This document shows positions 4,024 to 59,968 of a stretch of 64,000 nucleotides of DNA, one piece after another (within the stretch, counting starts at the first letter, position 1; every line of letters starts with the position of its first letter). The translations under genes were made by a program, and so were the position numbers. Source of the DNA: Bacillota bacterium (GTDB lineage Bacteria > Bacillota > Limnochordia > DUMW01); NCBI GenBank assembly GCA_012839765.1, contig DUMW01000031.1:11829-75828 (forward strand), written 5' to 3'. The notes under the pieces were generated by a model. It was not told where the DNA came from. It searched no databases and worked only from the letters and a program-made list of their open reading frames with translations.

Positions 4024-4138
4024 TGAGATTTCCTCCTTTAACGTTGAAAAGAAGGTAGGTGGGTCCTTGATGTCTAAAAATAATTATAATACAAAAAAAC
4101 GAATCCTGCAAAATACATTGCTCCATGGGAGTGACCAT

Positions 4139-5119
4139 ATGAAGGAAAGACTGTTGGAGTACCTGGAGGCCCAGGAGGGCGGCTACGTTAGTGGCGCCGC
4201 TCTTTGTGACCAGCTGGGTATCACCCGCAGTGCCATTTGGAAATGGGTTGAGCAGCTGCGTAAAGATGGTTACAAGATAGAGGCTGTATCTAGCCGAGGT
4301 TACCGCCTCGTGGAAAAACCCGATCGGTTGTATCCTTGGGAGGTGGGCCGGGGACTGGGGACGGAGATCATCGGTACCCGGTTCCACTATGAACCGGTCC
4401 TCGATTCTACCAATACCAAATGTAAGAAATTGGCCCGGGATGGTGCCCCGGAAGGCCTGGTGGTGTTGACGGAAGAGCAACGGGCAGGGAGGGGGCGGCG
4501 GGGCAGGAACTGGGTCTCTCCTCCCTATCTGGGGATTTACTGTTCTGTGTTGCTAAGACCCCAAATCCCCCTGCAGCAAGTAGCCCAAATGTCTTTGATG
4601 ACCGCGGTGGCCCTCCAGGCAGAAATCGAGGGCAGTACCATCAAGTGGCCCAATGATCTTTTGATTGGAGACCGAAAGCTTGGTGGGATCCTGGTGGAGG
4701 TCGATGCGGAGCCGGATTTGGTGAAAGCGGTCATTGTGGGCTTTGGTATCAATGTCAACCAGGAACAGGACCAACTGCTGCTGGACTTACAAAAAACAGC
4801 CACTAGCTTACGCATCAGTCACCAAAGATCCTTTGCCCGCGTAGCCCTTTTGCAGCGGTTGCTGTTGAGTCTGGAAAGAACATACAAAGGCTTTCTAAGC
4901 GAGGGTTTCGGTCCCATTCTGCAACGATGCAAGGCGGTTTGTTCCACTCTCAAGCGGGAAGTGGTGGTCTATAAACCCGGTGGCGACATCCTGCAGGGAA
5001 CGGCCCTGGATATCGCCGCGGATGGGGCCCTCGTTGTCCAGAGCACCACCGGCGGACTTGTGCCTGTATACGCGGGTGAGGTGAGTGTGCGCACCCAGAA
5101 TCAGGCCTTTCTGGAATAA
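4139..5119 (+). CDS. birA: bifunctional biotin operon repressor / biotin-protein ligase (group II)
   Basis: N-terminal wHTH (VSGAALCDQLGITRSAIWK), GRGRRGR, KWPND, KLGGIL. Start ATG 4139; the upstream extension overlaps htrA. Confidence 0.95.
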   Translation: MKERLLEYLEAQEGGYVSGAALCDQLGITRSAIWKWVEQLRKDGYKIEAVSSRGYRLVEKPDRLYPWEVGRGLGTEIIGTRFHYEPVLDSTNTKCKKLARDGAPEGLVVLTEEQRAGRGRRGRNWVSPPYLGIYCSVLLRPQIPLQQVAQMSLMTAVALQAEIEGSTIKWPNDLLIGDRKLGGILVEVDAEPDLVKAVIVGFGINVNQEQDQLLLDLQKTATSLRISHQRSFARVALLQRLLLSLERTYKGFLSEGFGPILQRCKAVCSTLKREVVVYKPGGDILQGTALDIAADGALVVQSTTGGLVPVYAGEVSVRTQNQAFLE

Positions 5120-9491: not shown

Positions 9492-10667
9492 TTAGGCCAG
9501 GGGTTCGGTGGTATAAAAATGGCCGTTTTTGTGGATTACCCCGTAGATCCGATACGCGATTTCCGCACAAAGGACCTTGCCCCCTTCGATGAAGAGACGA
9601 GGTATATGGGGAGGGATGGAGGTGAACCGCTGATAGATGGCCACTGGTTCCTGGATTTGCGCGGATACCCCAGGGGGAATCCGGATGGTGGCCATGCCCA
9701 TGGACGTCCGGCCCAGGAAGTGTGTGGGTTGTCCCTGGATGCGCACTAGTTGTCTTTCTTTGTGCAGGAGCTTCCGGCCCAGGGCCCCGAGGGAACTTTG
9801 AATATCCCCCGGCGGATCCAGCAAGAGTCCATCTCCATAGCCCAAAGGGATGGTGCCGATCTGCAGTGGGGCTGGCGCCCGGTAGGTGCTACCGTAGCCG
9901 AGGGTTTCGCCTTTGGCCAGCTCCTTCACTAAGACAAGATAGGTCTTTAGACACCAGGCCGTCTCCGTGGGTAAAGGGGCACACTGGCCGTAGAGGGCGT
10001 TGCCGAGGCGGCAAAGGTCTAACCTGCTTTCCGGCACTAGCACCGCGGCGGCACTGTTGGCCGCGTGGACCCAGGTGAAGGTGAAGCCATGTTTGTCTAA
10101 TTCCTCTACCGTCTTCAAGAAGCGGTCCAGCTGCCTTTTGGTTTGGGGGATGTTATGACTGGTGGGGAAGTGGGTGTAAATCCCTTCCCAAAGCAGACGC
10201 CTTTTCCTATCCAGGGCGCTCACCTGGCGGAGGAAAGCCAAGGCCTCCTCGGGTTTAATGCCACTTCGCCCCATGCCGATATCGATCTTTAGATGCACCC
10301 GGATCTTCCTTTTGTACTTCTCCCCTGCCCGAACTAGGGCCTCGGCCATGGGCAGGGTGCACAAAGTTTGGGTAAGGTCATACAAGGCCACCTGCTCCCC
10401 TTGGAAAGGGAAGCCGGGATGGAAGATGAGAATGGGACCGCGGATGCCACGACGCCGCAAGGTCCGGGCCTCTTCCAGGCTGTTTACTGCCAGGCCCCGG
10501 GCACCTAGGCGGAGAAAGAGCCGACTGGTTTGCACTAACCCGTGGCCATAGGCGTTGTTTTTCACCACGGCAAAGAAATCCGTTGGTATAGCCCTTCTTA
10601 CCTTGCTGAGGTTTTCTTTGAGTTTACCCGTATCGATTTCCACCCAAACCGGGGGTAAAGGATCCAT
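9492..10667 (-). CDS. alr: alanine racemase-family PLP enzyme (atypical)
   Basis: AVVKNNAYGHG (PLP Lys), KIDIGMGRSG, YTHF, HAANSA, GYG catalytic Tyr, IPLGYGDG; C-terminal motifs divergent. Confidence 0.85.
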   Translation of the reverse strand: MDPLPPVWVEIDTGKLKENLSKVRRAIPTDFFAVVKNNAYGHGLVQTSRLFLRLGARGLAVNSLEEARTLRRRGIRGPILIFHPGFPFQGEQVALYDLTQTLCTLPMAEALVRAGEKYKRKIRVHLKIDIGMGRSGIKPEEALAFLRQVSALDRKRRLLWEGIYTHFPTSHNIPQTKRQLDRFLKTVEELDKHGFTFTWVHAANSAAAVLVPESRLDLCRLGNALYGQCAPLPTETAWCLKTYLVLVKELAKGETLGYGSTYRAPAPLQIGTIPLGYGDGLLLDPPGDIQSSLGALGRKLLHKERQLVRIQGQPTHFLGRTSMGMATIRIPPGVSAQIQEPVAIYQRFTSIPPHIPRLFIEGGKVLCAEIAYRIYGVIHKNGHFYTTEPLA

Positions 10668-11746
10668 TAGCCACGACTCCCTAGAAGTTTCAGTTTTTCT
10701 TGGAGGGGGCCTTTAAGGAGGATCATTTGCCTTAGCAAGGGTTCACCTTTGTTATATAAACTCCAAAGAAGTTTGTTGTAGGGCAGATCCAGCTCCCCGA
10801 TGTATTCCACCAAGGTGGGGTTAAACCCCTCCTTGAACCGATACAGCCCATACAAGGGATGGTTGGGATCTAAATTGCCGCTTACCCCGCGAAAATCATA
10901 AACCTGGCACCCCCGTTGCTTGGCGTAGCGGATCATGGCCCACTGGATGGCGTAGTTGGGCTGCAGGTTCCTAAGCTCGTTGCTCGAGGCGCCGTATAGA
11001 TACCAGGCTTGGCTGCCAAAGACAAACAAGAGTGTGGCGGACAGTAATTGCCCTTGGTAGTAGGCCAAGAATAGCCGGGCCATGTTCCGGGGGACAAACA
11101 GATCCCACATCCGGGAAAAGTAACCGTAGTTGCGCACGGCAAATCCGTCCCGCTGGCAGGTTTCCAGAAGTAACGAATAGAATTTGGACAGATCCCTTTT
11201 GTCCGCGGAGCAGCGGACTTGGACTCCCTTCCGCTGGGCATAGCGGATGTTGTAACGGGTTTTGGACTTCATCTCCGCCAAAAGCTGTTCTTCGCTCTTG
11301 TCGATATTCAAGCGGAAGACGAATTTGGGCTGGACGTTCTCGAAGGCCTTGCCCTTGTTCACCGAGCGAAAACCGGCCTTGAGCAGATGTTTGTGGAACT
11401 GGAGGTTTTCCTTGGGGATGGGCGGATCGATCTTGAGGAAGATGGCCCGGTGTTCTTTGGCAATGGGGCGGATTTCCCCGAGCAGTGGTTCCAGATGCTT
11501 TGGATCCGCCAGGACGGGTCCGTGGGGTGCGTAGAAAAAACTCCGGCCCAAGGGGATCCCTCGTTTGAGAATGGAGACGGCCCCAAGGATCTCGTCCTTG
11601 TCCTCCAAGATTAAGCGCAGAGGTTCCCATCCGGTATAGGCCTTCAATTCACCCCACTCGTAGGATTGTAGAAAACTACCCTGTTGCCTTGCCAGAAAGC
11701 CATTAAACAGATCCCGCTCATTGTTATGTATTAGCCGCAGGTGCAT
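10667..11746 (-). CDS. FemX/FemAB/MurM-family aminoacyl-tRNA-dependent peptidoglycan bridge ligase
   Basis: FLQSYEWGELK, FYAPHGPV, IFLKIDP, KSKTRYNIRYAQRKGV, WYLYGAS, YDFRG, LYRFKEGF; stop overlaps the alr start (TAATG). Confidence 0.9.
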   Translation of the reverse strand: MHLRLIHNNERDLFNGFLARQQGSFLQSYEWGELKAYTGWEPLRLILEDKDEILGAVSILKRGIPLGRSFFYAPHGPVLADPKHLEPLLGEIRPIAKEHRAIFLKIDPPIPKENLQFHKHLLKAGFRSVNKGKAFENVQPKFVFRLNIDKSEEQLLAEMKSKTRYNIRYAQRKGVQVRCSADKRDLSKFYSLLLETCQRDGFAVRNYGYFSRMWDLFVPRNMARLFLAYYQGQLLSATLLFVFGSQAWYLYGASSNELRNLQPNYAIQWAMIRYAKQRGCQVYDFRGVSGNLDPNHPLYGLYRFKEGFNPTLVEYIGELDLPYNKLLWSLYNKGEPLLRQMILLKGPLQEKLKLLGSRG

Positions 11747-11860
11747 GCCGTCGCCCCCCTTGTGCTAATCAGTTTATGCAGTAACCGTGGGGATGTTCAT
11801 CGGCATAAAGCTACGTCCTGGGCAATATATTTTACAAAAAACATTAGCAGGTGATGCGGG

Positions 11861-13018
11861 GTGGCAAAAGAGGGACGTGCGGTTGTTTGGTGGGTGAGTT
11901 TGCTTTCGGTCTTGTCATTGCTTTCCGGTGTGACCTGCGCCGAGGAACTCCGCCTTGCCGCAGAGGCGGTGGCCTTGGTGGATGGGCAGACCGGCGTACT
12001 ACTTTACGGTAAAAACGCCTTTACCCGGCGGTCCATTGCCAGCCTCACCAAAGTGATGACCATCTTTCTGACCGCAGAAAACATCCAAGCGGGGAAGATC
12101 AAAATGGATGACGTGGTGGTGGCGGACGCCAAGGCCCAGTCCCTGGAGGGGACGGAACTGAAGGTGAAGCAGGGCCAGTCCTTCACTGTGGAAGAGCTTC
12201 TTTATGCTGCCGCCCTGATTTCCGCCAACGACGCTGCATATATGCTGGCGGTGCACCAAGCGGGTTCCGAGGCTGCCTTTGCCCAGCAGATGACGCAGCG
12301 AGCCAGGGAACTGGGCCTGGAGGATACCAACTTCACCGATGCCACGGGTCTTAACCCCAGCTGGGAAGGAAACTACTCCACCGCCTATGACTTGGCCCAA
12401 CTCTTTCGGGTGGCCATCCAAAATCCCATCTTCGCCCGGGTGGTGGGCACCGCCCGGTACCGAATCAATTCTCTGGGTCTGGAGATTACCAACTCCAATC
12501 CCCTCCTCGGGGAGTATCCGGGGAATGAGGGGGGGAAGACCGGTTTCACCACCCCCGCGGGGCACAGCCTCGTTACCTCGGCCACCATTGAGGGCTGGAG
12601 GCTGGTGGCGGTAGTCCTGGGAGGACCAAACCGGGAGGCCCGGCAGCAAGATACCAAAGAGCTTCTGAATTATGGGTTTGAAAACCTCCAGTTGGTGATC
12701 CGCAAAGGAGAAGTGGTGGGGACCGGTCCCCTTTCTGGTGGAGCCCGCAGCAAAGTGCAGCTGGTGGCCGGATCCGACTTCAAGGCCCATGTCCCACCAG
12801 GCTATGACGGACCACCCTTGGAAAGAAGGTTGGAGCTGGATTCCCCACCACCGGAGGCCCCCGTGGACCCGGGCCAGCCCTTCGGCCGCCTTGTCTTTTA
12901 CCGGGGGGAGGAAGAAGTGGGTTCCATCCCTGCGGTGGCTAAGCACGGGGTAGGGACGGCAAACGTGGTGACTAGAGTAATCAGTTGGTTTTTGGGCCTT
13001 TTCGGCCGCAGACCCTAG
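11861..13018 (+). CDS. D-alanyl-D-alanine carboxypeptidase (peptidase S11, DacF/DacA-like)
   Basis: SxxK (ASLTK), SxN (SAN), KTG (GKTGFT), C-terminal PBP5 domain, signal peptide. Confidence 0.92.
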   Translation: MAKEGRAVVWWVSLLSVLSLLSGVTCAEELRLAAEAVALVDGQTGVLLYGKNAFTRRSIASLTKVMTIFLTAENIQAGKIKMDDVVVADAKAQSLEGTELKVKQGQSFTVEELLYAAALISANDAAYMLAVHQAGSEAAFAQQMTQRARELGLEDTNFTDATGLNPSWEGNYSTAYDLAQLFRVAIQNPIFARVVGTARYRINSLGLEITNSNPLLGEYPGNEGGKTGFTTPAGHSLVTSATIEGWRLVAVVLGGPNREARQQDTKELLNYGFENLQLVIRKGEVVGTGPLSGGARSKVQLVAGSDFKAHVPPGYDGPPLERRLELDSPPPEAPVDPGQPFGRLVFYRGEEEVGSIPAVAKHGVGTANVVTRVISWFLGLFGRRP

Positions 13019-13033
13019 CGGGGAGGATTAGCC

Positions 13034-14986
13034 TTGTATTACGATGCCCTGTTGGTCAGCAGAAAACGAATTCTGTGGCTCTTTTGTGCTGTGGCTGTGT
13101 TCTTCGTGGTGGTGGTGCTGCGCCTGTTTTATGTGCAGGTTTTGCAGTACCAGTTCCTCCAGGGACAGGGACTGAAACAACGATTACGACCCATTCCTGT
13201 GGATGCAAAGCGGGGGACCATCTATGACCGTAACGGCTATGTATTGGCCACCACGATTAGTGCCTCGTCGGTCTACGCTATCCCAGTGGAGATCACAGAA
13301 CCGGAGAAGACTGCTCAGCTGTTGGCGGAAGTGCTGGACTTGGACTATGACTTTGTCTTGAAGCGGGTCACGGCCAACAGTGCCGCCGAGTGGATCAAAA
13401 AGCGGGTCACCGATGCGGAGGTGACCCTGGTGCGGAGTTTAGATCTGCCGGGCATTGGCATCGTGGAAAATCCCGTGCGGTATTACCCCGATGGGACCAT
13501 TGCCCCCCAGGTATTGGGGATCGTGGGCATCGATAACCAGGGCCTGGAGGGAATCGAGTTCCAGTACGACGCGATCTTGCGGGGGCGTCCGGGGGCTGTG
13601 TTGGTGGAACGGGATTCCATGGGCCGGGAGATTCCGCACGGTGTCCACACCTATGTTAAACCGGTGGACGGCTATGATATTTACCTGACCATCGATCGGA
13701 ACATCCAACTGATGGCCCAAAGGGAGATTGCCCGGGTTACCCAGGAAACCGGCTCGAAGCAGGGGTTGATCCTCGTGATGGATCCTGGAACCGGGGAGAT
13801 CCTGGCTACGGCCATTTATCCCTCTTTTGACGCGGCCAACTATGCGGACTATCCGGACAAATACCGGCGGAATGTGGCCATCACCGACAATTACGAGCCC
13901 GGTTCCACCTTCAAGGCGGTTACCGCCGCGGCGGCCTTAGACGCAGGGATCACCACCCTCCAAACCCGCTATTTCGACCCCGGTTTTATCCGCGTTTCCG
14001 GGTGGACGATCAAATGTTGGCACAGCGCCGGACACGGCTCCCAAAACTTCATTGAGACCCTGGAAAACTCCTGTAACCCCGTGTATGCCCGCCTGGGCAT
14101 GGAATTGGCGGAACTGAAGGAAGGACGCGGTTTTTATGAATACATCCGTGACTTTGGTTTCGGTGAGCCCTTGGGCGTAGACTTTCCCGGTGAGGCGGTG
14201 GGGATTTTGTATCCCCCCAGTCCCGATGTGCCCGCGGTCACCTGGGCCAACATCGGTTTTGGGCAGAGTATCAGCGTGACCCCCCTGCAGCTGTTGAATG
14301 CCATGAATGCCATCGCCAATGGCGGTAACCTGATGCGACCCTACTATGTAATGAGGATCGTGGATAAGGACGGGAATGTCATCGAGGAGAGGGAACCGGA
14401 GGTCATTCGTCAGCCGGTCTCGCGGGAGGCCGCGGAGCAAGCGGCCCTGATGCTCCGTTCCACTGTGGCCAATGGCACCGCCAGCGGTGCCGACATCCCT
14501 GGCTACCGGGTGGGGGGCAAGACGGGTACAGCCCAGGTGGCCGAAGGGGGAGTGTACAGCCGCTCCAAGGTGATTGCCTCCTTCTTTGGGATCGCACCGA
14601 TGGATGATCCCCAATTTGCGGCCCTTATTGTCCTTTGGGAGCCTACCGGTGCTTACTACGGCGGTGTGATTGCGGCACCGGCCTTTGGAATCTTCGCCCT
14701 GCCGATGCTGCGGTACTTGAACGTGGAACAGCGGCTGGAGGATAACGGTGAGGAAAGAACGGTGCAAGTGCCAAAGGTTGTCGGGCTACCATTGGCGGAG
14801 GCGGAACGATTGATCACCCAACAGGGACTGACCTACGGAATCATGGGGATCGGACCCGTGGTTACCTATCAGACTCCCTTACCCAACGTCTATGTGGCCC
14901 AAGGGGCTAAGGTCATCCTCTACACAGATCCCACCGAGCTGTTGGAAACGGGTCTGGTGGTACGGGATGGGCCTACACTCCATTGA
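13034..14986 (+). CDS. class B penicillin-binding transpeptidase (SpoVD/FtsI-like) with PASTA domain
   Basis: N-terminal TM, RGTIYDRNG, EPGSTFK, SCN, KTGTAQ, C-terminal VPKVVGLPLAEA PASTA; GGGAGG RBS before TTG. Confidence 0.92.
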   Translation: MYYDALLVSRKRILWLFCAVAVFFVVVVLRLFYVQVLQYQFLQGQGLKQRLRPIPVDAKRGTIYDRNGYVLATTISASSVYAIPVEITEPEKTAQLLAEVLDLDYDFVLKRVTANSAAEWIKKRVTDAEVTLVRSLDLPGIGIVENPVRYYPDGTIAPQVLGIVGIDNQGLEGIEFQYDAILRGRPGAVLVERDSMGREIPHGVHTYVKPVDGYDIYLTIDRNIQLMAQREIARVTQETGSKQGLILVMDPGTGEILATAIYPSFDAANYADYPDKYRRNVAITDNYEPGSTFKAVTAAAALDAGITTLQTRYFDPGFIRVSGWTIKCWHSAGHGSQNFIETLENSCNPVYARLGMELAELKEGRGFYEYIRDFGFGEPLGVDFPGEAVGILYPPSPDVPAVTWANIGFGQSISVTPLQLLNAMNAIANGGNLMRPYYVMRIVDKDGNVIEEREPEVIRQPVSREAAEQAALMLRSTVANGTASGADIPGYRVGGKTGTAQVAEGGVYSRSKVIASFFGIAPMDDPQFAALIVLWEPTGAYYGGVIAAPAFGIFALPMLRYLNVEQRLEDNGEERTVQVPKVVGLPLAEAERLITQQGLTYGIMGIGPVVTYQTPLPNVYVAQGAKVILYTDPTELLETGLVVRDGPTLH

Positions 14987-15117
14987 GCACCGTCCCGTTC
15001 TCAATTTGGTCCCCTGGGGGCTCTAGTTGGGGTTTACTACCGTTAAGAACCATCATCTCTTGGGAACGATGAAACAAAATTCCGCAAAAAATTAGGTGCC
15101 AGAAACGCGTTTGCCTA

Positions 15118-15146
15118 GCAGGGATGTGCTATATTTCCATAAGAAT
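15118..15146 (+). promoter_or_regulatory. sigmaH-like promoter candidate for secreted-protein block
   Basis: GCAGGGATG...AAGAAT resembles RNAGGAWWW-N11/12-RNNGAAT. Confidence 0.3.
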
Positions 15147-15323
15147 TAATATATAAGTCCAGGAGATGTATACAAGTGGTATGCAGGACTGATTACTGTG
15201 TCTTGATAGTTTTGGCCTGTGGGCCGCTGAGCACATACTTCTTTCGGGAGGTGGTAGATAAAGGAGGAAGCCCGATAGTCTTACCAAGGAACGATTAACA
15301 GATTCAAATCAGGAGGAGAAGCG

Positions 15324-15884
15324 ATGCGAAGGCTCTTTGTTCCAATTCTGATTGTGCTGGCAATCGTGAGTGTATCAGTGTGTGGTTTTGCCAAGGAAGT
15401 GGACCTGTTTACCCTGCTGACCGGGGACTGGGAAGCCCTTCCCCACTGGATTTCTGCAAACTGTACCGCGGCCACGGACTATGTTGTGGACCTGGTGCCC
15501 GCCCCCGAAGAGGTCTCCCCCTGGGGGATGGCCTGGCGGTTCCAGGTAAACCAGCCCAATACGGCGATGAAGTGGAGTACCCCCGTATCTCTGCTCACCG
15601 GGGAAACCCCCTATTTGGTGGTGACCTACCGGGCGGTGGGGATTGACACGGCGGATTCCGGTGTCGCCGGTGACGATTGGTTCGTATTCTTTTACGGTGC
15701 CGAGTTTTCACCGATGATCGGCTTTCTGTATGAGCTGGAGTCCGACGGTGAATGGCATACCATCGTGTTCTCTGTGCCAGAGATTACCATGTGGTACCTA
15801 GACTTCCACGTCAAAGCTGCCGATGTGGAGGAGGCTTTTATCGAGATTGCGGATCTCCGTTTGGTATCCGAGATCGAAGAGTAA
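15324..15884 (+). CDS. secreted acidic hypothetical protein (possible beta-sandwich/CBM-like fold)
   Basis: Signal peptide, AGGAGG RBS, beta-strand patterning with aromatics, ends IEIADLRLV. Confidence 0.65.
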   Translation: MRRLFVPILIVLAIVSVSVCGFAKEVDLFTLLTGDWEALPHWISANCTAATDYVVDLVPAPEEVSPWGMAWRFQVNQPNTAMKWSTPVSLLTGETPYLVVTYRAVGIDTADSGVAGDDWFVFFYGAEFSPMIGFLYELESDGEWHTIVFSVPEITMWYLDFHVKAADVEEAFIEIADLRLVSEIEE

Positions 15885-15962
15885 GGCACGAATCTACCAA
15901 AGGGCACGTTTTGCCCTTTGCAGCTCAATCCAACCAAAATCCATGATGGAGGTTAGAAAGCG

Positions 15963-17234
15963 ATGTCAAATTGGAAGTTTAAGGTTCTTGTTCTGGTTGT
16001 CTTGGCGATGATTCTGTTGCCGTTGGTTGGCACTGCAAAGACTATCCTGCGGGTGCAAGACTGGAAGATTAACGAAACGGAAGATACCAGACGCTGGTAC
16101 GAGGAGGCAAAGCGGCTCTTTGAGGAAAGGTATCCCGATGTAGAGATCCAGTATGATGGGATTGGTTTTGGGAACGAATACGTGGAGAAACTCTACATCA
16201 CCACCGCCACCGATACCGCCCCGGATGTGGCCTTTGTTTCGGTGGCCTGGGCCCGGGATCTCTTTGAGGCCGGCGCTTTGCTGCCCTTGAACGACTACGT
16301 CGCGAAGTCGCCTCACGTGGCGCCGGATCAATTCATTCCCACCACCCAAATCTACAACCAGAAGGACGGCATCATCTACGGGATTACCTTTGCTTTGGAT
16401 GCAGACTTCATCGTTTACAACATGAACCATTTCGATGAGATGGGTCTGAGCACCGATCCATACGCCATGGCAACCTGGGAGGATTTCATCAACTTTGGTC
16501 GGAAACTGATGGTGTATGACGCCAATGGCAATCCCACCCGTTACGGTTTTGACTTCCTCCCCGGTACTACCGCATTTAGTGCGTTCCTGGATTCCAACGG
16601 TGGCAGCTTCTACAATTCCGACTTCACCGGGCTCAATATTGATACTCCCCAGGGGCAGGAAGTCTTGCAGCTGTTCTACGACATCCGCCTAGAGTACGGC
16701 TTTGCGTCGGATAGCTATACCGCTGCTTGTAACTTCTTGGCCAATACCGCGTCCATGGGGATGGGTGGAATCTACCACTCCTACTGGGCGCCCCATTACG
16801 TGCCGGGCATTCGGTTGGGCTTCACCACTGTTCCGGTGGGTCCCTCGGGAGACAAGCGGGGTGCGGTGGTGTACGGTAATATGTATTCCATCAGCTCCGC
16901 CAGCAAGAACCCGGATCTGGCCTGGAAGTTCATCGAGTTCATGACAAGCCTTGAGGCTGCGGAGCTGCATTACCGGATCACTGGTACCGTGCAGTCCCCG
17001 CGGTTGGACTTCTATCAGAGTGATCTGTGGGTGTCCACCATCCACGAGGCCCAGTGGCGGCAGATGATCCCCTACATCGGTATGACCACTGGTATCTGGC
17101 CCTTCGTAGGCTACGACCGCATCAACCAGGTATGGGGTCCCTTGATCTCGGATCCTCTGTCCGGCAAGGCACCTTTGAGCACCAATGCCCTCAGCGAGGT
17201 GCAGCGGCTGGTTAACCAGTACCTTGCCCAGTAA
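15963..17234 (+). CDS. ABC transporter substrate-binding protein, carbohydrate type
   Basis: FEERYPDVEIQ, TAPDVAFV, LLPLNDY, IYGITF, VYNMNHF, ATWEDF, SKNPDLAWKFIEFM; signal peptide without lipobox Cys. Confidence 0.88.
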   Translation: MSNWKFKVLVLVVLAMILLPLVGTAKTILRVQDWKINETEDTRRWYEEAKRLFEERYPDVEIQYDGIGFGNEYVEKLYITTATDTAPDVAFVSVAWARDLFEAGALLPLNDYVAKSPHVAPDQFIPTTQIYNQKDGIIYGITFALDADFIVYNMNHFDEMGLSTDPYAMATWEDFINFGRKLMVYDANGNPTRYGFDFLPGTTAFSAFLDSNGGSFYNSDFTGLNIDTPQGQEVLQLFYDIRLEYGFASDSYTAACNFLANTASMGMGGIYHSYWAPHYVPGIRLGFTTVPVGPSGDKRGAVVYGNMYSISSASKNPDLAWKFIEFMTSLEAAELHYRITGTVQSPRLDFYQSDLWVSTIHEAQWRQMIPYIGMTTGIWPFVGYDRINQVWGPLISDPLSGKAPLSTNALSEVQRLVNQYLAQ

Positions 17235-17260
17235 CAAGGGACCTTTGGTCCATAAACGTA

Positions 17261-17294
17261 GATGGGATGGTCGCGGACCGTCCCATCTTTCTTT
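17261..17294 (+). terminator. intrinsic terminator after SBP gene
   Basis: GATGGGATGGTC-gcg-GACCGTCCCATC followed by TTTCTTT. Confidence 0.65.
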
Positions 17295-17315
17295 ACGTCC
17301 GGTAGGAGGGATCCT

Positions 17316-18707
17316 ATGGCTAGAAGACATGTAAGGTGGTTGGTTCTATTCATGTTACTGTTTTCCAGTATTGCCTTAGCGCAAGAAACCAGTGAAGTTG
17401 TCCCCAGTATCTATTTGGATCAAAGCAGGGAGTTCCTCTTTCGGGTGTCCTGGGATTGGCCCCGGGGTCTGCGGAGCCAATACCGAGTGACGGTGGGCGA
17501 GCAGACCTTGTCTTTGGAGCTTTTGGCCGATTACGATATCCTCATCCTCCCCGCCTCCTCCGGGACGGTGGAATATTCACCAGAGGAGATCGAGGCCATC
17601 AAGGACTACTTGGAGGCGGGGGGTGGCGTGTTGCTCTGCAATCCTGGATACACCCCCAGTACCCCGGCCACTAAGCTGTTGATGAACTTGGGCCTTCTCA
17701 CCTTGCGGTTTAGCATTAACAAAGCCACCGGCGAACTGCGCACCCCCGCGGGGGAACCCCTAGGAGTAGAAGCCTGGGGCGGAAACACCATTAACATCCT
17801 GGCCAACCGTATGCCCGAAGGCTTTTCGGTGGGGGTCGTGGATGCCCAGGATCGTCCGGTCTTGCTCACCGGAACCCTTGGCCAGGGGCGGTTTGCTATG
17901 GTCAGTGATGATGCGGTGCTTTTCATCAACAACGGTCGGGAGCTTACTCCTGGGGGAGTGGAGCTTTTGCAGTGGCTGGGGGAAAACCGCATCGGGAAAA
18001 ACCAAGGTTACGTGGCCCAGCGTCTGTATCCGGAATTGACCCTGACCCATGGGGAGATCACAGTCCATTACTCCCAGGTGCTTAAGGACTATGTAGAGCT
18101 CATCATCGAACATGCCGACGAGATTTTCGAGTTTCTTGAGGACTACCATGGTCATGCCCTTTCACAGATGCGGGTGGTCCTTCTGGCCTGTGCCGGCAGT
18201 GGCTATGCTGCCGGAGGCGAAGTGGGAATCGGCGTCTTGGGAGAGCGGGCCAATGTGATCGAAGTAATGGGTCATGAATTGACCCATGAATGGGTGCGGC
18301 CGGCTATTCTACCCTCCACCATGAACGAAGCCTGGGCAATTATCATGGGGCTGCGGGTAACAAACCTGGTGGGGTTTGCGGAGCACTATGAGGAGGAAAT
18401 GGCCCGATTGAAGAACGCGTACGAGAACGCCAAGACGTTGGGGGTCAACATGGACCTGCGTCTGACGAAGGAAGAAACGGGGGATCATTGGTTCGGTTTC
18501 ATCGGCAAAGTGTTGCAGCTGGTGGAAACTGCGGAAGCCATGTACGGTGACCATTTCTCCCGGGATTTCTTCACTTTGGCCATCCAACGGATCCAAGAGG
18601 GTAAAGCCCACAGTCCCTTGACTATTCGGGATATTGCCAATGTGGCCGGAGAGGTCCTGAATATGGATCCGGAAGTGATTTACGAGAGGTTGCAGGGCGG
18701 GCATTAG
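17316..18707 (+). CDS. secreted protein: class I GATase-like domain plus gluzincin-type metallopeptidase domain
   Basis: Signal peptide; YDILILP...IKDYLEAGGGVLL; GHELTHEW followed by NEAWA; start ATG 17316 after AGGAGGG. Confidence 0.65.
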   Translation: MARRHVRWLVLFMLLFSSIALAQETSEVVPSIYLDQSREFLFRVSWDWPRGLRSQYRVTVGEQTLSLELLADYDILILPASSGTVEYSPEEIEAIKDYLEAGGGVLLCNPGYTPSTPATKLLMNLGLLTLRFSINKATGELRTPAGEPLGVEAWGGNTINILANRMPEGFSVGVVDAQDRPVLLTGTLGQGRFAMVSDDAVLFINNGRELTPGGVELLQWLGENRIGKNQGYVAQRLYPELTLTHGEITVHYSQVLKDYVELIIEHADEIFEFLEDYHGHALSQMRVVLLACAGSGYAAGGEVGIGVLGERANVIEVMGHELTHEWVRPAILPSTMNEAWAIIMGLRVTNLVGFAEHYEEEMARLKNAYENAKTLGVNMDLRLTKEETGDHWFGFIGKVLQLVETAEAMYGDHFSRDFFTLAIQRIQEGKAHSPLTIRDIANVAGEVLNMDPEVIYERLQGGH

Positions 18708-18732
18708 GCCCTGCGAAACGGGGGTTTGAGTT

Positions 18733-20817
18733 GTGCGCACCATTGTTAGTGTTTTGCTGATCTTCTTGATTGCTTTTACTGCCCTACCGGTAGCCGCGGC
18801 TAGCATCCGCCGTCCGACAGTCTACATCGATCAGAGCAGAGAGTTTCTATTCCGCTTGTCCTGGGATCTAGCCCGGATGCTGCGGGAGCGGTATGTGGTC
18901 ACCGTGGGCGAGTGCACTCTGACGCCAGAGGTTTTGGCTCCCTATGATGTCCTGATTCTCCCCGTCTCCCGCCAGGTGGGGTATACGGCCCAGGAGTTAG
19001 TGGCCATTGAGGACTTTCTAAAGCGGGGGGGCGGCGTACTGGTGTTGGACTTTTCCCGTTCCGTCAGTGAACCGGCCCACCAGATCTTGGCCCATTTGCA
19101 GGTACCCCTGCGGGGTGGCAGTACGGCCGCAGTGGGGGAACTGACCAGTGGGGCCCAAGGACCCTTGGGGGTTACTGCCACGGGCAAGACCATCAATATC
19201 TTGGGGTCTGGCTTTGAGGTGACCGTCACCGACCGGAATCAGCGGCCGGTGCTGGTGGAAGGTGGCTTTGGGGCCGGGCGGTTAGCGGTGGCTGGAGACG
19301 AAGGGATCCTGCTTACCAATGACTACTCTAAGCTTACCGCCGGGGCCTTGGAACTGGTGGAGCGGTTAGCGGGAAATCTGTCGGGAGAGCCCCGGGATGT
19401 TATCCCGGACAGGTTGTACCCGGAGCATACCCTCCAGCACGGCACCATCACCCTCTATTACTCCCAGGTCCTCGCGCAGTACGTGGAATTCTTGGTGGAA
19501 CATGCCGATGAGGCCTTTGATTTTATCGGCAAACTCCACGGTCATGAGCTGCCCGCGGGATTACGGGTGGTACTGTTGGCCTGCGCTGGTAGTGGTTATT
19601 CTGCCCATGGCGAAGTGGGGATCGGGGTTTTAGGGGAAGCAGCTAATGTGATCGACGTCTTCGGCCATGAATTGACCCATGAGTGGGTCTGGCCTGCGAA
19701 GATGCCGTCTTCCATCGAAGAGGGTTGGGCCTCCCTGGCCGGGGCCCGGCTATGCGCGTATCTGGGTTTCGACGATTACGCCCAAAGGCAGCAGGCGAGC
19801 TATGCCAATGCCTTCGAGCGGACCAAGGCGGAGTTGGGACACCTTGATCTGCTCACCGGCCACCAGACCGAAGGGGTGCATTGGGCCGGGCACATGGGCA
19901 AGACCATGTACCTGGTGAAAAGGGCAGAAGAACTCTATGGACCCACCTTCACCCCGGACTTCTTCACCCTGGCTATTGAGCGGATCCAGCGGGGTGAGGC
20001 TAGCAGTCCGCTGACCATCGAAGATATTGCCCGGATCGCTGGTACTCTGCTTCAGATGGATCCGGAACTGGTCTACGATCACCTACGGGGTGCTGCCTAC
20101 ATTGAGGTAAGCTCTCCTAAGGCCGGTGCCTATGTGCGGGGGGATTTGCCCTTGGAAGTTCGGATTCCCCAGGGAAAGGACCACCGGGTCCGGGTGACCC
20201 TCAACGATCAAGAGCTTTACGTGGGACCCTGGGAGCCTTTGGTGATTGATACCACGGTCTTCCCCGATGGGGAGTACCGGCTTACCCTGGAGCTTTTTGC
20301 CCAGGATACCCTGGTGAACCGCCAGACGCTGACCATCTATCTGGACAACTGGCAGCGGGTGGAGGATCATCTCCGGCCGCCGTTGGAGTCCCCCTGGTTT
20401 GGGACGGTAAAGCAATCCCGCTACCTGGATTGTACCCCCGGCTGGCGCCATGATACCGATCGGGCCCAGGATTTCTTCGGTGATGCCCACCGCTTGACCT
20501 GTGTGGGAGAAGCCCTGGAATCGGTAATCTATGCCGCGGTGGAGGTGCGGGAGTTTGCCGTTACCGTATATGCCAAGGGCGACAGCCTGCAGGGCATCCT
20601 CGCGGTGGAGGTCTCCCCGGATCAAGTAGAATGGAGCCCCCTACCCTATGAGGAGGAAGTTGTAGAGGTGGCCGGGGACTGGCGCAAGGTGATCATCAGC
20701 GGTAGGGAGCTTCCCAGTGCCGGTACCAGCTTCTTACGGATCACCGTGGATGGCAGCCAGGTGCCGCCAGAAAATGTGGTCCTGGGGTATGTGGAGTATA
20801 TCGCAAAGGTGGAATAG
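18733..20817 (+). CDS. paralog of preceding gene with extra Ig-like and C-terminal beta-rich domains
   Basis: Shares DQSREFLFR, RVVLLACAGSGY, GEVGIGVLGE, GHELTHEWV and SPLTI with 17316-18707; IEVSSPKAGAYVRG Ig-like segment. Confidence 0.65.
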   Translation: MRTIVSVLLIFLIAFTALPVAAASIRRPTVYIDQSREFLFRLSWDLARMLRERYVVTVGECTLTPEVLAPYDVLILPVSRQVGYTAQELVAIEDFLKRGGGVLVLDFSRSVSEPAHQILAHLQVPLRGGSTAAVGELTSGAQGPLGVTATGKTINILGSGFEVTVTDRNQRPVLVEGGFGAGRLAVAGDEGILLTNDYSKLTAGALELVERLAGNLSGEPRDVIPDRLYPEHTLQHGTITLYYSQVLAQYVEFLVEHADEAFDFIGKLHGHELPAGLRVVLLACAGSGYSAHGEVGIGVLGEAANVIDVFGHELTHEWVWPAKMPSSIEEGWASLAGARLCAYLGFDDYAQRQQASYANAFERTKAELGHLDLLTGHQTEGVHWAGHMGKTMYLVKRAEELYGPTFTPDFFTLAIERIQRGEASSPLTIEDIARIAGTLLQMDPELVYDHLRGAAYIEVSSPKAGAYVRGDLPLEVRIPQGKDHRVRVTLNDQELYVGPWEPLVIDTTVFPDGEYRLTLELFAQDTLVNRQTLTIYLDNWQRVEDHLRPPLESPWFGTVKQSRYLDCTPGWRHDTDRAQDFFGDAHRLTCVGEALESVIYAAVEVREFAVTVYAKGDSLQGILAVEVSPDQVEWSPLPYEEEVVEVAGDWRKVIISGRELPSAGTSFLRITVDGSQVPPENVVLGYVEYIAKVE

Positions 20818-20830
20818 ACCTTAGTACATC

Positions 20831-20861
20831 AATCGGCACAGCTTTCCAGGCTGTGCCGATT
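20831..20861 (+). terminator. hairpin downstream of peptidase pair
   Basis: AATCGGCACAGC-tttccag-GCTGTGCCGATT. Confidence 0.55.
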
Positions 20862-20963
20862 CCACGTTCAGGGGAAAACCTCCAAAGTGGGAACTGTTAA
20901 AAGGATCGGGTTTGTGGTATTGTACAAGATGGGAAACTATCATGGTTGAAGGAAGGTTATGTT

Positions 20964-22583
20964 ATGGAGATTGTAATTGGACTTGCCGGTGGGTTGGCCC
21001 TGTTTCTCTTTGGTATCGAGCAGATGTCCGAAGGCCTGCAACAAGCAGCCGGTCGTCGGTTGAGTAATGTACTTAGTTTCTTGACGAAAAACACCTTTGT
21101 CGGCGTGTTGTCAGGTCTTATCCTTACCATGTTGATCCAAAGCAGCAGTGCTACTACGGTGATGCTGGTGGGCTTTGTGAAGGCGGGATTGATGACTTTA
21201 CAACAGACCATCGGTCCTATCCTTGGGGCTAACATCGGTACCACCATTACGGTCCAGATGGTCTCCCTTAAACTGACAGATCTGGCTTTGCCCGCTGTGG
21301 CCCTTGGTTTTGTGTTGTACTTTGGTGGCAAGTCTAGACGGTGGAAACTAATCGGGGAGAGCATCCTTGGGTTTGGTCTTCTTTTCCATGGGATGGAGCT
21401 GATGTCCACCAGTCTTGAGCCCCTACGGAATAGTGCTGTATTTGCCGACATCATCGCTCAGTTTGCCCAGCATCCCATGCTGGGGGTCTTGATAGGGATT
21501 ATCGGTACTGCCATCGTGCAAAGTAGTAGTGCTTTTACCGCAGTGGTGCTGGCTTTGGCCATGCAGGACTTGGTTACCCTGGAGTCCGGTGTTGCGTTGG
21601 TGTTGGGAAGCAATATTGGCACCTGTGTCACCACGTTGTTGGCTTCCATTGGAGGCGGCGTGACTGCTTTGCGGGTGGCGGTGGCCCACCTTTTATTTAA
21701 TACCGTGGGCGTTGTTCTTTTCCTCCTTATCTTCAACCCCTTTACTTCTCTGGTCAGCCTGACCTCTCCAGTGGTGGCGCGGCAGCTGGCCAACGCGCAT
21801 ACCCTCTTTAACGTGGCCAATACCTTGTTGTTCCTGCCCTTTGTTGGGGTTTTTGTGAAGTTTTTGGAGCGCATCATTCCCGGCGAAGACGAGATCGTGG
21901 AACGGCGTGTCAAATACCTGGATGTCAGTGCCCTGAAGTATCCCCGGGTTTCCTTGGAACTGGCTGCTAAGGAGATCAACCGGATGGCGACTTATACCGA
22001 GGCGATGCTGTCCGGGGCCCGAAAAGCCTTTCTAGAGGGGAACCGCGACTCCATCTACAAGGTGCAGCAGAGTGAGGATCTGGTGGACATGCTCCAAGAG
22101 GAGATTCTGGAGTACATGTCTAGTTTGTTGACGAGCAATATAAACCTTTCCGATGTGGAGTCGGAGCGGGCTACCGGTTTAATGATGGTAGTCAATGACA
22201 TTGAACGAATTGCAGACCATGCCAACAATATTGCGGAATTTGCCCAGGTGATGATGGATGATGAATTGAAGTTCTCCGAAGAGGCCACCGCTCAACTTAC
22301 GAAGATGTTTGACCTAGTGCAGGAGATGGTACGGCTTAGTGTGCAGGTCTTGGCCAATCAGGACAAGGAAGCCGCGCAGAAAATCTGGGATATTGAACGA
22401 CTGGTGGACGAGATGGAGGAAGAGATGCGCCAGGGCCATATGAAACGGATGTACGAAGGAGTCTGCATCCCCCGGGCGGGGATTGTCTATGTGGAGATGG
22501 TGACGAACCTGGAGCGGATTGGCGACCACACTACAAACATTGCGGATATGGTCCTCACGGACCAATTGCCCGCTTCCAAGTAG
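20964..22583 (+). CDS. Na+/Pi cotransporter family protein with PhoU-like repeats
   Basis: QSSSAT and QSSSAF repeats, GANIGTT/GSNIGTC, C-terminal ERIADH and ERIGDH PhoU motifs. Confidence 0.92.
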   Translation: MEIVIGLAGGLALFLFGIEQMSEGLQQAAGRRLSNVLSFLTKNTFVGVLSGLILTMLIQSSSATTVMLVGFVKAGLMTLQQTIGPILGANIGTTITVQMVSLKLTDLALPAVALGFVLYFGGKSRRWKLIGESILGFGLLFHGMELMSTSLEPLRNSAVFADIIAQFAQHPMLGVLIGIIGTAIVQSSSAFTAVVLALAMQDLVTLESGVALVLGSNIGTCVTTLLASIGGGVTALRVAVAHLLFNTVGVVLFLLIFNPFTSLVSLTSPVVARQLANAHTLFNVANTLLFLPFVGVFVKFLERIIPGEDEIVERRVKYLDVSALKYPRVSLELAAKEINRMATYTEAMLSGARKAFLEGNRDSIYKVQQSEDLVDMLQEEILEYMSSLLTSNINLSDVESERATGLMMVVNDIERIADHANNIAEFAQVMMDDELKFSEEATAQLTKMFDLVQEMVRLSVQVLANQDKEAAQKIWDIERLVDEMEEEMRQGHMKRMYEGVCIPRAGIVYVEMVTNLERIGDHTTNIADMVLTDQLPASK

Positions 22584-22591
22584 CCAATCAC

Positions 22592-22615
22592 GCCCCCGTT
22601 TGGGGGCTTTTTTTT
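22592..22615 (+). terminator. intrinsic terminator of Na/Pi transporter
   Basis: GCCCCC-gttt-GGGGGC followed by T8. Confidence 0.8.
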
Positions 22616-22617
22616 AT

Positions 22618-22689
22618 TGGAGCGGGCGAGAGGACTTGCACCTCTACCTTCCGGTGGGACCGGACGTCATACTCTTTGACCACGCCCGC
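22618..22689 (-). tRNA. atypical tRNA-Gly(CCC)-like gene, 72 nt, with encoded CCA
   Basis: GCGGGCG-TG-GTCA-AAGAGTA-TGAC-G-TCCGG-TCCCA-CCGGA-AGGT-AGAGG-TGCAAGT-CCTCT-CGCCCGC-T-CCA: four paired stems, G1-C72/C2-G71/G3-C70/U73 and CCC; non-canonical T-loop, D-loop and anticodon arm. Confidence 0.85.
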
Positions 22690-22848
22690 TCGGTGTCTTT
22701 AGCATAATTCTATGCGGTGACTGGGATAATATGCCGAAGGGATCTGGATACTATACCTTAGACGGCGATTTGGGGACTAATTTGCAGAAAGTGGGACCTA
22801 AGTCCCCAAAAACCATAGGTATCGGCCATGAATGGCAAATTACACCTA

Positions 22849-22876: not shown

Positions 22877-22886
22877 AAGGGCGAAA

Positions 22887-22903
22887 GGTCAAGAAAGGTC
22901 AAA
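22887..22903 (+). promoter_or_regulatory. CtsR operator
   Basis: GGTCAAG-AAA-GGTCAAA versus consensus RGTCAAA-NAN-RGTCAAA. Confidence 0.85.
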
Positions 22904-22956
22904 GATGTGGAAAGGGCCTCGTAAAGCAGGTTAGACGATGACGAGTCTCCCGGGTC

Positions 22957-22973
22957 TTTGACCTTGCTTGACA
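22957..22973 (-). promoter_or_regulatory. second CtsR operator, inverted orientation
   Basis: Minus strand TGTCAAG-CAA-GGTCAAA. Confidence 0.65.
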
Positions 22974-23019
22974 TTGTGAAAGGGAGGTAGCAACTCGTTC
23001 TAGGAAAGGATGTGTTGGG

Positions 23020-23484
23020 ATGACCTTAGCCGATCTGATTGAGCAGTATATCAAAAAACTGCTGGTCAGCACGGCCACCGATATGGTAATCATTCGGCGC
23101 CAAGAGCTTGCGCAGATGTTTGACTGCGTACCCTCCCAGATAAATTACGTGCTGCAAACCCGTTTTACCCCGGAAAAGGGGTACATCGTGGAAAGTAGGC
23201 GGGGCGGTGGCGGATATATCCGCATCGTCCGCATGGAAGCTCCTAGCCGGGGCGAGGTGATCAGGAACCTGATCTTGAACATCCGCCCCCCCATGGAGCA
23301 GCGGGAAGTGGAGGAGGTCTTGGAACAGCTGGTTGACTTGGATGTGTTGGAGGAACGGACGGCAGCGTGGTTAAGAACCTTGATCAGGCACGAGTGTAAT
23401 GAGTACAACCCCGAAATCGCAGACTATGTGAGGGCGTCATTGCTTAAGGTGACCTTGCTGATGAAGTTAGGAGAGAACTCCTAG
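23020..23484 (+). CDS. ctsR: class III heat-shock repressor CtsR
   Basis: LADLIEQYIK, FDCVPSQINYVLQTRF, VESRRGGGGYIRI. Confidence 0.97.
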   Translation: MTLADLIEQYIKKLLVSTATDMVIIRRQELAQMFDCVPSQINYVLQTRFTPEKGYIVESRRGGGGYIRIVRMEAPSRGEVIRNLILNIRPPMEQREVEEVLEQLVDLDVLEERTAAWLRTLIRHECNEYNPEIADYVRASLLKVTLLMKLGENS

Positions 23485-59702: not shown

Positions 59703-59794
59703 AGATGCCAGATGAGCGGTTTAGCGGTTGTTTTGAGGGTTATTGACTGCTTTCCAGCAGTGTGATAGGATAGGAAAGGACAAGTGAATAAAGG

Positions 59795-59900
59795 CTCATC
59801 GAGAGTGGTGGAGGGACTGGCCCAATGAAACCCGGCAACCGGTGGAATAATCCCACAAGGTGCTAAATCCTGCAGAATGGTAACCGTTCTGAGAGATGAG
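59795..59900 (+). ncRNA. SAM-I (S-box) riboswitch aptamer
   Basis: CTCATCGAGAG-TGGTGGAGGGACTGGCCCAATGAAACC-CGGCAACC...GGTGCTAAATCCTGCAG...CTGAGAGATGAG upstream of metK. Confidence 0.95.
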
Positions 59901-59920
59901 ATTACTATAGCAAAACTAGT

Positions 59921-59954: not shown

Positions 59955-59968
59955 GTATGGAGGTCAAA

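Follow-up and report, generated by a model that had tools for sequence, protein, structure and literature searches.

Can a bacterium outside the staphylococci keep a tRNA in reserve for building its cell wall? The question is raised by a 64-kb stretch of contig DUMW01000031.1 (hereafter the window, meaning the whole stretch that was analysed), which derives from an uncultured, spore-former-type Limnochordia bacterium whose habitat is biogas and anaerobic digesters. In the window, femX, a gene for a Fem-type transferase, is followed by a gene of the alanine racemase family and is divergent from two genes for penicillin-binding proteins (PBPs), and a tRNA-Gly-like gene of unusual shape lies some distance away. 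A first-pass annotation of this DNA had joined these parts into one pathway for branched peptidoglycan stem peptides. The features on which it built (femX, the TAATG-coupled racemase, the divergent PBPs and a tRNA about 11 kb off) are all present where it had placed them, and the gene arrangement lies far beyond chance because it recurs in other genomes. Our analysis points to a conserved cell-wall module and to a probably functional tRNA derivative; the functional tie between the two is the part that we propose tentatively.

The femX cell-wall module

The femX open reading frame (ORF; 10667-11746, minus strand, 359 amino acids) matches Pfam FemAB (PF02388) with an E-value of 1.9e-63 and 215 bits, against a cut-off of 24 bits. 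Its closest sequence in the PDB is the Staphylococcus aureus lipid II:glycine glycyltransferase 6SNR (E 7e-47), of which residues 232-288, the coiled coil, are skipped in the alignment. The helical arm is also absent from the AlphaFold2 model of FemX, whose mean predicted local distance difference test score (pLDDT) is 90.7. This model matches the tandem GNAT-like fold of the solved FemX and FemA structures: in Foldseek searches it recovered 6SNR (S. aureus FemX/FmhB; E 1e-30, template modelling (TM) score 0.84), Weissella viridescens FemX (FemX_Wv; TM 0.79) and FemA (TM 0.81). Six Fem catalytic or substrate-binding residues, K35, D107, R205, Y209, F304 and K305, correspond to K36, D108, R211, Y215, F304 and K305 of FemX_Wv and are invariant in 30 homologues. 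Sequence and predicted fold place the window FemX among the true Fem transferases, in the short subtype represented by FemX_Wv, to which the coiled-coil arm is foreign. It is 72% identical to the FemX of a metagenome-assembled genome (MAG) labelled Limnochordia (L001) and 49% identical to that of a second Limnochordia bacterium (L147).

The racemase gene (9492-10667, minus strand, 391 amino acids) is joined to femX so closely that the femX stop TAA and the racemase start ATG share one base in TAATG, the junction reading GGCTAATGGAT. The same overlap occurs in both other Limnochordia species readable at this point (L001 and L147), and femX and the racemase gene alr are adjacent in 8/8 Clostridia and Limnochordia lineages looked at. 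The pair is present in the window, L001, L147, Calderihabitans, Desulfosporosinus, a lineage labelled Thermoanaerobacterales (L148) and L149; in the last four of these, it follows argS-pyrG and stands among housekeeping genes. The protein matches Pfam Ala_racemase_N (E 8e-58) and Ala_racemase_C, and scores 238 bits against NCBIfam TIGR00492 (alr), above the 168-bit cut-off. It retains the motif with the lysine that binds pyridoxal phosphate (PLP; VVKNNAYGHG), together with Arg136, His166, Arg219 and Tyr265, and the catalytic Lys39 and Tyr265 are invariant in seven femX-linked racemases (window, L001, L147, L006, L008, L148 and L149).

Other features of these enzymes are less conventional. About 25 amino acids are inserted after the GYADG motif, which reads GYGDG in the window copy. 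The canonical Cys-Met-Asp (CMD) motif is replaced by GMQ across the femX-linked subfamily and by SMGMA in the window, and the segment with the canonical Tyr354 does not align; in canonical alanine racemase we take CMD to be the active-site motif contributed by the second subunit and Tyr354 to be the gate. When the C-terminal 122 amino acids were used as the sole query, no PDB racemase was found. The racemase also diverges faster than its neighbours, at 58% identity to L001 compared with 72-82%. The predicted femX-linked racemases form a distinct subfamily, always downstream of femX. The simplest role for the window enzyme would be D-alanine supply; a femX-linked racemase lacking CMD and the Tyr354 gate could possibly act on something besides free alanine.

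Divergently from femX, across a gap of 115 nt, run two PBP genes on the plus strand. The first (11861-13018) encodes a low-molecular-weight PBP, an S11 D-Ala-D-Ala carboxypeptidase of the DacB/DacF type, with matches to Pfam Peptidase_S11 (E 2e-54) and PBP5_C; its counterpart adjoins femX in L001 (73% identity) and L147 (51%) too. The second (13034-14986) encodes a SpoVD-like class B PBP with Transpeptidase (Pfam E 1.5e-68), PBP_dimer and PASTA domains in the same order as SpoVD. Its best NCBIfam family is spoVD_pbp (TIGR02214), at 573 bits, which is below the 688-bit cut-off and ahead of a runner-up family at 341; it is 82% identical to the L001 protein and 56% to that of L147. This divergent dac and spoVD-like pair is found in all three Limnochordia loci readable on that side (window, L001 and L147). 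The first-pass annotation had treated femX, the racemase and the two PBPs as one cell-wall unit, and the recurrent femX-alr adjacency and the recurrent PBP pair bear this out: the four genes are predicted to make up a real, conserved cell-wall module.

Several features hint at a connection of this module with sporulation. Upstream of femX, sequence form and cross-species comparison point to a promoter-like element, AACATCCCCACGGTTACTGCATAAACT (11771-11797, minus strand), of which the CATAAACT box at 11772-11779 lies 32 nt upstream of the femX start. Each of the three Limnochordia loci has, at -29 to -33, an element consisting of AAC, a spacer of 16-17 nt and GCATA(A/C/G)nCT; it reads AACATC...GCATACACT in L001 and AAC...GCATAGTCT in L147, so that the boxes are kept and the spacer is divergent. 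The AAC-N16/17-CATAnnnT motif is absent upstream of the femX genes that follow pyrG. Mother-cell promoters of the sigma-E and sigma-K type have a -35 box of AC or ATA and a -10 box of CATA---T(A). In addition, femX and alr form an operon with spmA and spmB in L001 and L147 (femX-alr-spmA-spmB), and the two spm genes flank ctsR in two other relatives; neither is present anywhere in the 64-kb window. Both spmA and spmB belong to the conserved sporulation genes, and expression of dacB in Bacillus subtilis depends on sigma-E (bioRxiv 10.1101/2022.02.25.481979). Bulk digester metatranscriptomes contain femX transcripts at a low level; these data are assembled contigs without strand, one run looks DNA-like, and vegetative and sporulating cells are inseparable in them. 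A literature search found no paper joining FemX, alanine racemase and sporulation, and none with the peptidoglycan type of Limnochordia. We know of no sporulation operon that contains a Fem transferase.

The tRNA-like gene and its orthologues

ARAGORN recognises a single tRNA in the window, a 72-nt tRNA-Gly(CCC) with encoded CCA at 22618-22689 on the minus strand (GCGGGCGUGGUCAAAGAGUAUGACGUCCGGUCCCACCGGAAGGUAGAGGUGCAAGUCCUCUCGCCCGCUCCA). The default filters of Rfam overlooked it, and permissive filters scored it at 47.9 bits with two loop positions deleted. Its acceptor stem is of the glycine type (G1-C72, C2-G71, G3-C70, U73 and the encoded CCA). The remainder is irregular. The D-loop, AAGAGUA, has no G18G19; in the T-loop, UGCAAGU, G55 replaces U55; and the anticodon arm consists of 5 bp and a 5-nt loop, UCCCA, which makes it 2 nt shorter than that of any canonical tRNA. 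An alternative fold with a 7-nt anticodon loop leaves a stem of only 4 bp. The description of this gene as an atypical tRNA-Gly was thus apt, on account of the D-loop without GG, G55, the short anticodon arm and the miss by default Rfam filters.

Three further Limnochordia orthologues were recovered by a metagenome pattern scan, ctsR-anchored look-ups and a covariance model. One (L135) comes from the same sample as the relative at 72% identity; the second is in L147, and the third is in L154/L155, whose CtsR is 66% identical to that of L147. Across the four sequences, each with 21 stem pairs, all 84 of 84 stem cells are paired, and five pairs have changed on both sides (double compensatory changes), while neighbouring proteins of the four species show identities down to about 50%. 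No change is seen in the acceptor stem, U73, CCA or U54-G55-C56, and the G-C pair that closes the anticodon stem is invariant as well. T-loops read UGCAAGU, UGCAAAU or UGCGACU and D-loops AAGAGUA or AAGUA. The anticodon loop is U-CCC-A in the window and L135, and A-CCA-A or C-CCA-A in the others, so that C35 is followed by C36 in the former two and by A36 in L147 and L154. ARAGORN fails on one orthologue and names another tRNA-Trp.

The gene departs from canonical elongator tRNAs in the geometry of the anticodon arm, in the G18G19/T54-Psi55-C56 elbow and, in two orthologues, in U33. Because the acceptor stem is of the glycine type but the loop wanders between a glycine and a tryptophan triplet and loses U33, we infer that the gene is probably a conserved, functional, non-decoding tRNA derivative.

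In all four species that carry the tRNA-like gene, femX lies 3-13 kb from it. The most compact arrangement is that of L147, where femX-alr-spmA-spmB is divergent from dac and the spoVD-like gene, and the tRNA-like gene follows 124 nt on and then ctsR; there it lies 3.3 kb from femX, with no accessory block between. In the window, the distance to femX is about 11 kb and the tRNA-like gene is inverted relative to L147, and L135 has the same flanking genes. For the fourth species, CtsR (MGI6034548.1) and FemX (MGI6034560.1) lie 12 protein accessions apart within one MAG, and for both the longest contig given is 188,831 nt. We also inspected four related ctsR loci that lack the femX cluster (L150-L153, namely Limnochordaceae, a Firmicutes MAG, Thermaerobacter and L153) and found no tRNA-like gene in them, although L153, a frameshifted long-read contig, is uninformative. 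At the Limnochordaceae and Firmicutes MAG loci, spmB-spmA stands directly upstream of ctsR and the femX cluster is absent.

Upstream of the tRNA-like 5' ends of three species (window 22690-22760; L135:7540-7603; L154:320-365), a GCATA(G/T)nA box occurs at a distance of 17-18 nt; in two of the three it is preceded by CAAC 16 nt above it, and it resembles the femX box. The shared box could reflect co-regulation of the tRNA-like gene and femX, its consensus being weak. A promoter consensus was also sought for the tRNA and dac, and rejected: the CATA boxes were suggestive and too weak to use.

A scan of a genome collection with a loose G55 tRNA-Gly pattern returned listed matches from Streptomyces and the candidate phyla radiation (CPR), which have no bearing on Firmicutes. 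Among the matches listed (L010-L129), more than 100 Streptomyces and Actinacidiphila species have a tRNA-Gly(UCC) whose T-loop is of the UGC type, whose D-loop reads AGUAGUA and whose T arm is irregular. It stands beside a canonical tRNA-Gly(GCC) in one to four tandem copies, many of them missed by ARAGORN (L021:5449-5861, L052:1413-1603). The peptidoglycan of Streptomyces has glycine-bridged LL-diaminopimelic acid, and these G55 tRNA-Gly genes may encode cell-wall tRNAs. A Fem gene beside a G55 tRNA was seen at one CPR locus among the matches listed (L073, Levyibacteriota) and in none of the metagenome-scan matches. In L073, a G55 tRNA-Gly(GCC) (170-242) lies between tRNA-Phe and tRNA-Gln, 3 kb from a FemX-like ORF (3237-4172) with 28% identity to the window FemX. 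The pattern gave a single match in a scan of viral contigs. Short G55 tRNA-Gly-like genes with tiny anticodon loops were further seen on three phage-like contigs: L130 (4591-4662), with a terminase and a DNA methylase; L140 (6875-6947), with a gp32-like protein; and L133 (10714-10786), whose copy is identical in sequence to that of L140 and lies beside tRNA-Arg, with a tmRNA-like gene 3 kb off. Both the L133 copy and L138 are assigned an anticodon of two bases by ARAGORN. Overall, G55-type tRNA-Gly genes are widespread (Streptomyces, CPR and phages) and are often missed by standard tRNA finders.

A proposed cell-wall role for the tRNA-like gene

What would these parts do together? We propose a peptidoglycan side-chain and cross-linking module in which the odd tRNA acts as a private glycine carrier. 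FemX would take an aminoacyl-tRNA, most likely Gly-tRNA, and start the branch by attaching its first residue to the stem peptide's diamino acid; trimming and cross-linking of the branched stems would then fall to the PBPs, and the putative racemase would feed the same precursors with a D-amino acid, D-Ala being the simplest choice. That FemX would act on peptidoglycan is suggested by its genomic context, namely the PBPs and the racemase. For charging, glycyl-tRNA synthetase (GlyRS) would recognise the acceptor stem of the tRNA, and the changed elbow and shortened anticodon arm would bar the tRNA from EF-Tu and the ribosome, leaving it to FemX as non-proteinogenic tRNAGly is left to FmhB in staphylococci. 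The module would probably be switched on in the sporulating mother cell, given the sigma-K/E-like promoter and the spmA-spmB genes in the operon of relatives. We offer the proposal as a whole tentatively, giving it somewhat less than an even chance. A fuller version, in which a sporulation-controlled branching module (FemX, racemase, DacB-like and SpoVD-like PBPs, and SpmAB) owns a non-decoding Gly-type tRNA across a Limnochordia clade, appears unlikely to hold in every part.

A number of observations weigh against the proposal. The constant neighbour of the tRNA-like gene is ctsR, at 50-330 nt in 4/4 species, and the gene adjoins the femX cluster in only one of the four; in L154, a TOBE-domain gene stands directly upstream of it. 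The four species that carry it may form one clade, in which case the co-occurrence would be a single event. Around the femX-alr pairs that follow pyrG in four other lineages, no tRNA was found within 10 kb; therefore, this FemX family generally works without a linked special tRNA. C36 is an identity element for bacterial GlyRS, and A36 in two of the orthologues may weaken charging. GGG makes up 29.8% of glycine codons here and is joint commonest, so a decoding CCC tRNA would be useful. Because G55 tRNA-Gly genes also occur in ordinary CPR tRNA runs and in phages, G55 alone is no proof of a cell-wall role. Finally, the window FemX lacks the coiled-coil arm that has been proposed to read the D- and T-loops of S. 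aureus cell-wall tRNAs (PMC7826273).

The sporulation step has its own difficulty. The element upstream of femX resembles a mother-cell sigma-K or sigma-E promoter with a weak consensus, and the CATAnnnT motif by itself is no rarer in the window than chance would have it. The first-pass annotation had taken this box as a weak hint of a sporulation-linked pathway. The hint gains from the motif standing at the same position in three species and from spmA-spmB in the operon of relatives, but loses from how often the motif arises by chance; on balance, a sporulation link of the module is modestly supported by these sequence features.

The strongest competitor draws on several of the same facts. 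It holds that the tRNA-like RNA is unrelated to FemX, that its role is tied to the ctsR stress operon, whether as an element for processing or stability, as a decoy of tRNA-targeting enzymes, as a ligand of a regulatory RNA or as the donor for another enzyme that depends on aminoacyl-tRNA, and that the proximity of femX is inherited synteny. This would account for the adjacency to ctsR in all four species, in two of which the gene is co-oriented and 50-200 nt upstream, for the TOBE-domain gene in L154, and for femX-alr pairs elsewhere that have no linked tRNA. The A36 variants may escape glycylation, and other non-ribosomal uses of Gly-tRNA exist (PMC13219725). However, in the window and L135 the tRNA-like gene and ctsR are transcribed away from each other, so co-transcription is not general, and ctsR loci without the femX cluster also lack the gene. 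FemX is the only enzyme using aminoacyl-tRNA in any of the neighbourhoods seen. Moreover, W. viridescens FemX recognises its tRNA by the acceptor arm only, and what stays invariant in the tRNA-like gene is precisely what aminoacylation and recognition of the acceptor arm by a short Fem enzyme require (PMC7826273). We regard a role tied to ctsR as a serious contender, if on the doubtful side.

Could the gene instead be an ordinary decoding tRNA-Gly(CCC) of odd shape whose nearness to femX is accidental? The window and L135 have kept U33, the anticodon CCC and A37, both ARAGORN and Rfam call a tRNA, and the codon usage and the CPR tRNA runs described above fit such a role. Its architecture argues otherwise: the anticodon stem has 4 bp, or 5 bp with a 5-nt loop and an invariant closing G-C pair, the arm is 2 nt short, and G18G19 and U55 are missing. 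Decoding by the orthologues that combine A33 or C33 and CCA with a glycine acceptor stem would place glycine at tryptophan codons. We consider a decoding role very unlikely.

A decaying relic, whether a pseudogene or an old integration site beside the accessory block, would agree with a loop that drifts between species, an adjacent insertion hot spot and the failure of ARAGORN on one orthologue, but it has only a slim chance of being right in view of 21 stem pairs kept in four species despite about 50% protein divergence, five of them by double compensation, an invariant acceptor stem, T-loop core and encoded CCA, and a block flanked by neither an integrase nor a direct repeat of the tRNA end.

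Returning to the proposed private carrier, service as the dedicated donor of FemX is a plausible function for the tRNA-like gene and the most economical one. The earlier claim that tRNA and FemX belong to one pathway is favoured by the conservation of the gene, its glycine acceptor and the presence of femX at 3-13 kb in 4/4 species, but it is set back by the anchoring to ctsR. The co-occurrence and synteny that the first-pass annotation had suggested examining gave a similarly divided answer: femX and the tRNA occur together in four Limnochordia, but this may be one event, and the femX-alr pairs of four other lineages have no tRNA within 10 kb.

Accessory block and parallels in known systems

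Between the spoVD-like gene and the tRNA-like gene, the window holds an accessory block of five plus-strand genes (15324-22583; Pfam, NCBIfam). They encode a 186-amino-acid hypothetical protein, a sugar-type ABC solute-binding protein, hypothetical proteins of 481 and 694 amino acids, and a Na/Pi cotransporter-PhoU fusion. The 481- and 694-amino-acid proteins are paralogous, sharing a 167-nt stretch at 74% identity, and have weak GIFT and ABC_transp_aux matches. The block is missing from L147, where nothing intervenes between the spoVD-like gene, the tRNA-like gene and ctsR, and block genes stand beside the tRNA in L135. This comparison supports the suggestion of the first-pass annotation that the 15-22.6 kb block is a later insertion. 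Since L135, a relative with about 72% protein identity, shares the block, the insertion is not a recent one. A search for scars at the block found no integrase and no direct repeat or duplication of the tRNA end. The region next to the tRNA is an insertion hot spot, with differing content in three lineages.

In digester metatranscriptomes, the block stands apart as a separate and more strongly expressed transcript: the genes of the 186-amino-acid protein, the solute-binding protein and both paralogues (15171-20887) assemble into a single contig whose depth is 5-20 times that of femX. The block and the tRNA are bracketed by an inverted repeat with perfectly matching 14-nt arms, of which the first (14905-14918) falls within the spoVD-like gene and the second (23018-23031) covers the start codon of ctsR; chance alone would give about 0.1 such repeats, and this one is probably a coincidence. 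In the relative at 72% identity, four independent assemblies (L001:1-110 and the ends of L002-L004) are interrupted about 140 nt downstream of the spoVD-like gene, where an ORF begins, MSTISIPRLFGFKRIK, which may be a repeated mobile element in the same insertion hot spot.

From the end of the Na/Pi gene to the 3' end of the tRNA, a GC-rich hairpin flanked by a T-run and an A-run (22592-22607, strand unassigned) could act as a bidirectional terminator. On the other side of the tRNA, CtsR operator repeats, GGTCAAA-type heptads at 22885-22975, lead into ctsR (together 22885-23484, plus strand), which opens the operon ctsR-mcsA-mcsB-clpC-radA-disA-carD (Pfam CtsR, UVR, ATP-gua_Ptrans and ClpC). 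Farther along, a SAM-I riboswitch (59793-59902; Rfam, 91 bits) lies upstream of an ORF at 59957-61183.

To our knowledge, no group but the staphylococci is known to have dedicated cell-wall tRNAs, which there resolve the competition between protein and wall synthesis for Gly-tRNA. Judged by its gene content, the module would be a new member of known families, and the novelty would lie in the tRNA-like gene, which would carry the idea of a cell-wall tRNA outside the staphylococci. If the fuller version of the proposal is true, this would be the first dedicated cell-wall tRNA outside that group, independently evolved and paired with an arm-less Fem enzyme, and the first sign of tRNA-dependent branches in spore cortex or germ-cell-wall peptidoglycan. 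An independent case in a distant class, with a different Fem architecture, would indicate that the solution is general and would offer a second system in which to study a tRNA off the ribosome. The association of femX and the racemase with spmAB and with dacB-like and spoVD-like genes also raises the question of whether some spore-formers make branched peptidoglycan during sporulation.

Four known systems help to place the locus. The first is W. viridescens FemX, a UDP-MurNAc-pentapeptide:L-alanine transferase, which like the window FemX is a short, two-domain GNAT-like protein without a coiled coil. However, the two are only about 27% identical, the window protein scores 149 bits against the 500-bit cut-off of the NCBIfam equivalog, and it is nearer in sequence to S. 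aureus FmhB than to FemX_Wv (164 versus 106 bits).

Canonical alanine racemase (Alr/DadX; Geobacillus stearothermophilus 1SFT) shares with the window enzyme the PLP-binding lysine, Arg136, His166 and Arg219 of the N-terminal barrel, and also Tyr265. In contrast to it, the window enzyme has the insertion of about 25 amino acids, a replaced CMD motif, a Tyr354 segment that cannot be aligned and a faster rate of evolution.

The mother-cell cortex genes of B. subtilis (dacB-spmA-spmB, spoVD and a second alanine racemase) have counterparts clustered in the Limnochordia loci, as well as a -10 box of the CATAnnnT type. Unlike the B. subtilis set, the Limnochordia cluster includes a Fem transferase; the window itself has no spmAB, and its PBP falls below the SpoVD cut-off.

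The closest parallel for the tRNA-like gene is the staphylococcal non-proteinogenic (NP) tRNAGly (S. aureus NP1-3 and S. epidermidis Ia/Ib, serving FmhB, FemA and FemB), whose hallmarks are a UGC or UGU T-loop and U19 and whose lineage is confined to staphylococci (PMC7826273). The window tRNA stands outside this NP lineage, differing in host class, anticodon and arm geometry. Its anticodon position reads CCC or, in orthologues, CCA, not UCC, and its anticodon stem has one pair fewer; the gene stands singly beside ctsR, outside any tRNA cluster, and its putative partner FemX is arm-less. For the T-stem, we compared the pairs 49-65, 50-64 and 51-63 with the staphylococcal set that binds EF-Tu weakly (A49-U65, U50-A64 and A51-U63). 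These pairs are not conserved among the orthologues, being A-U, G-C and A-U in the window and L135, G-C, G-C and A-U in L147, and all G-C in L154. Nevertheless, the window tRNA and its staphylococcal counterparts share the glycine acceptor identity, a T-loop of the UGC/UGU type, a D-loop without G18G19, U19 in place of G, a 5-nt loop closed by a 32-38 pair, A49-U65 and A51-U63, and in both cases a Fem transferase is encoded in the same genome.

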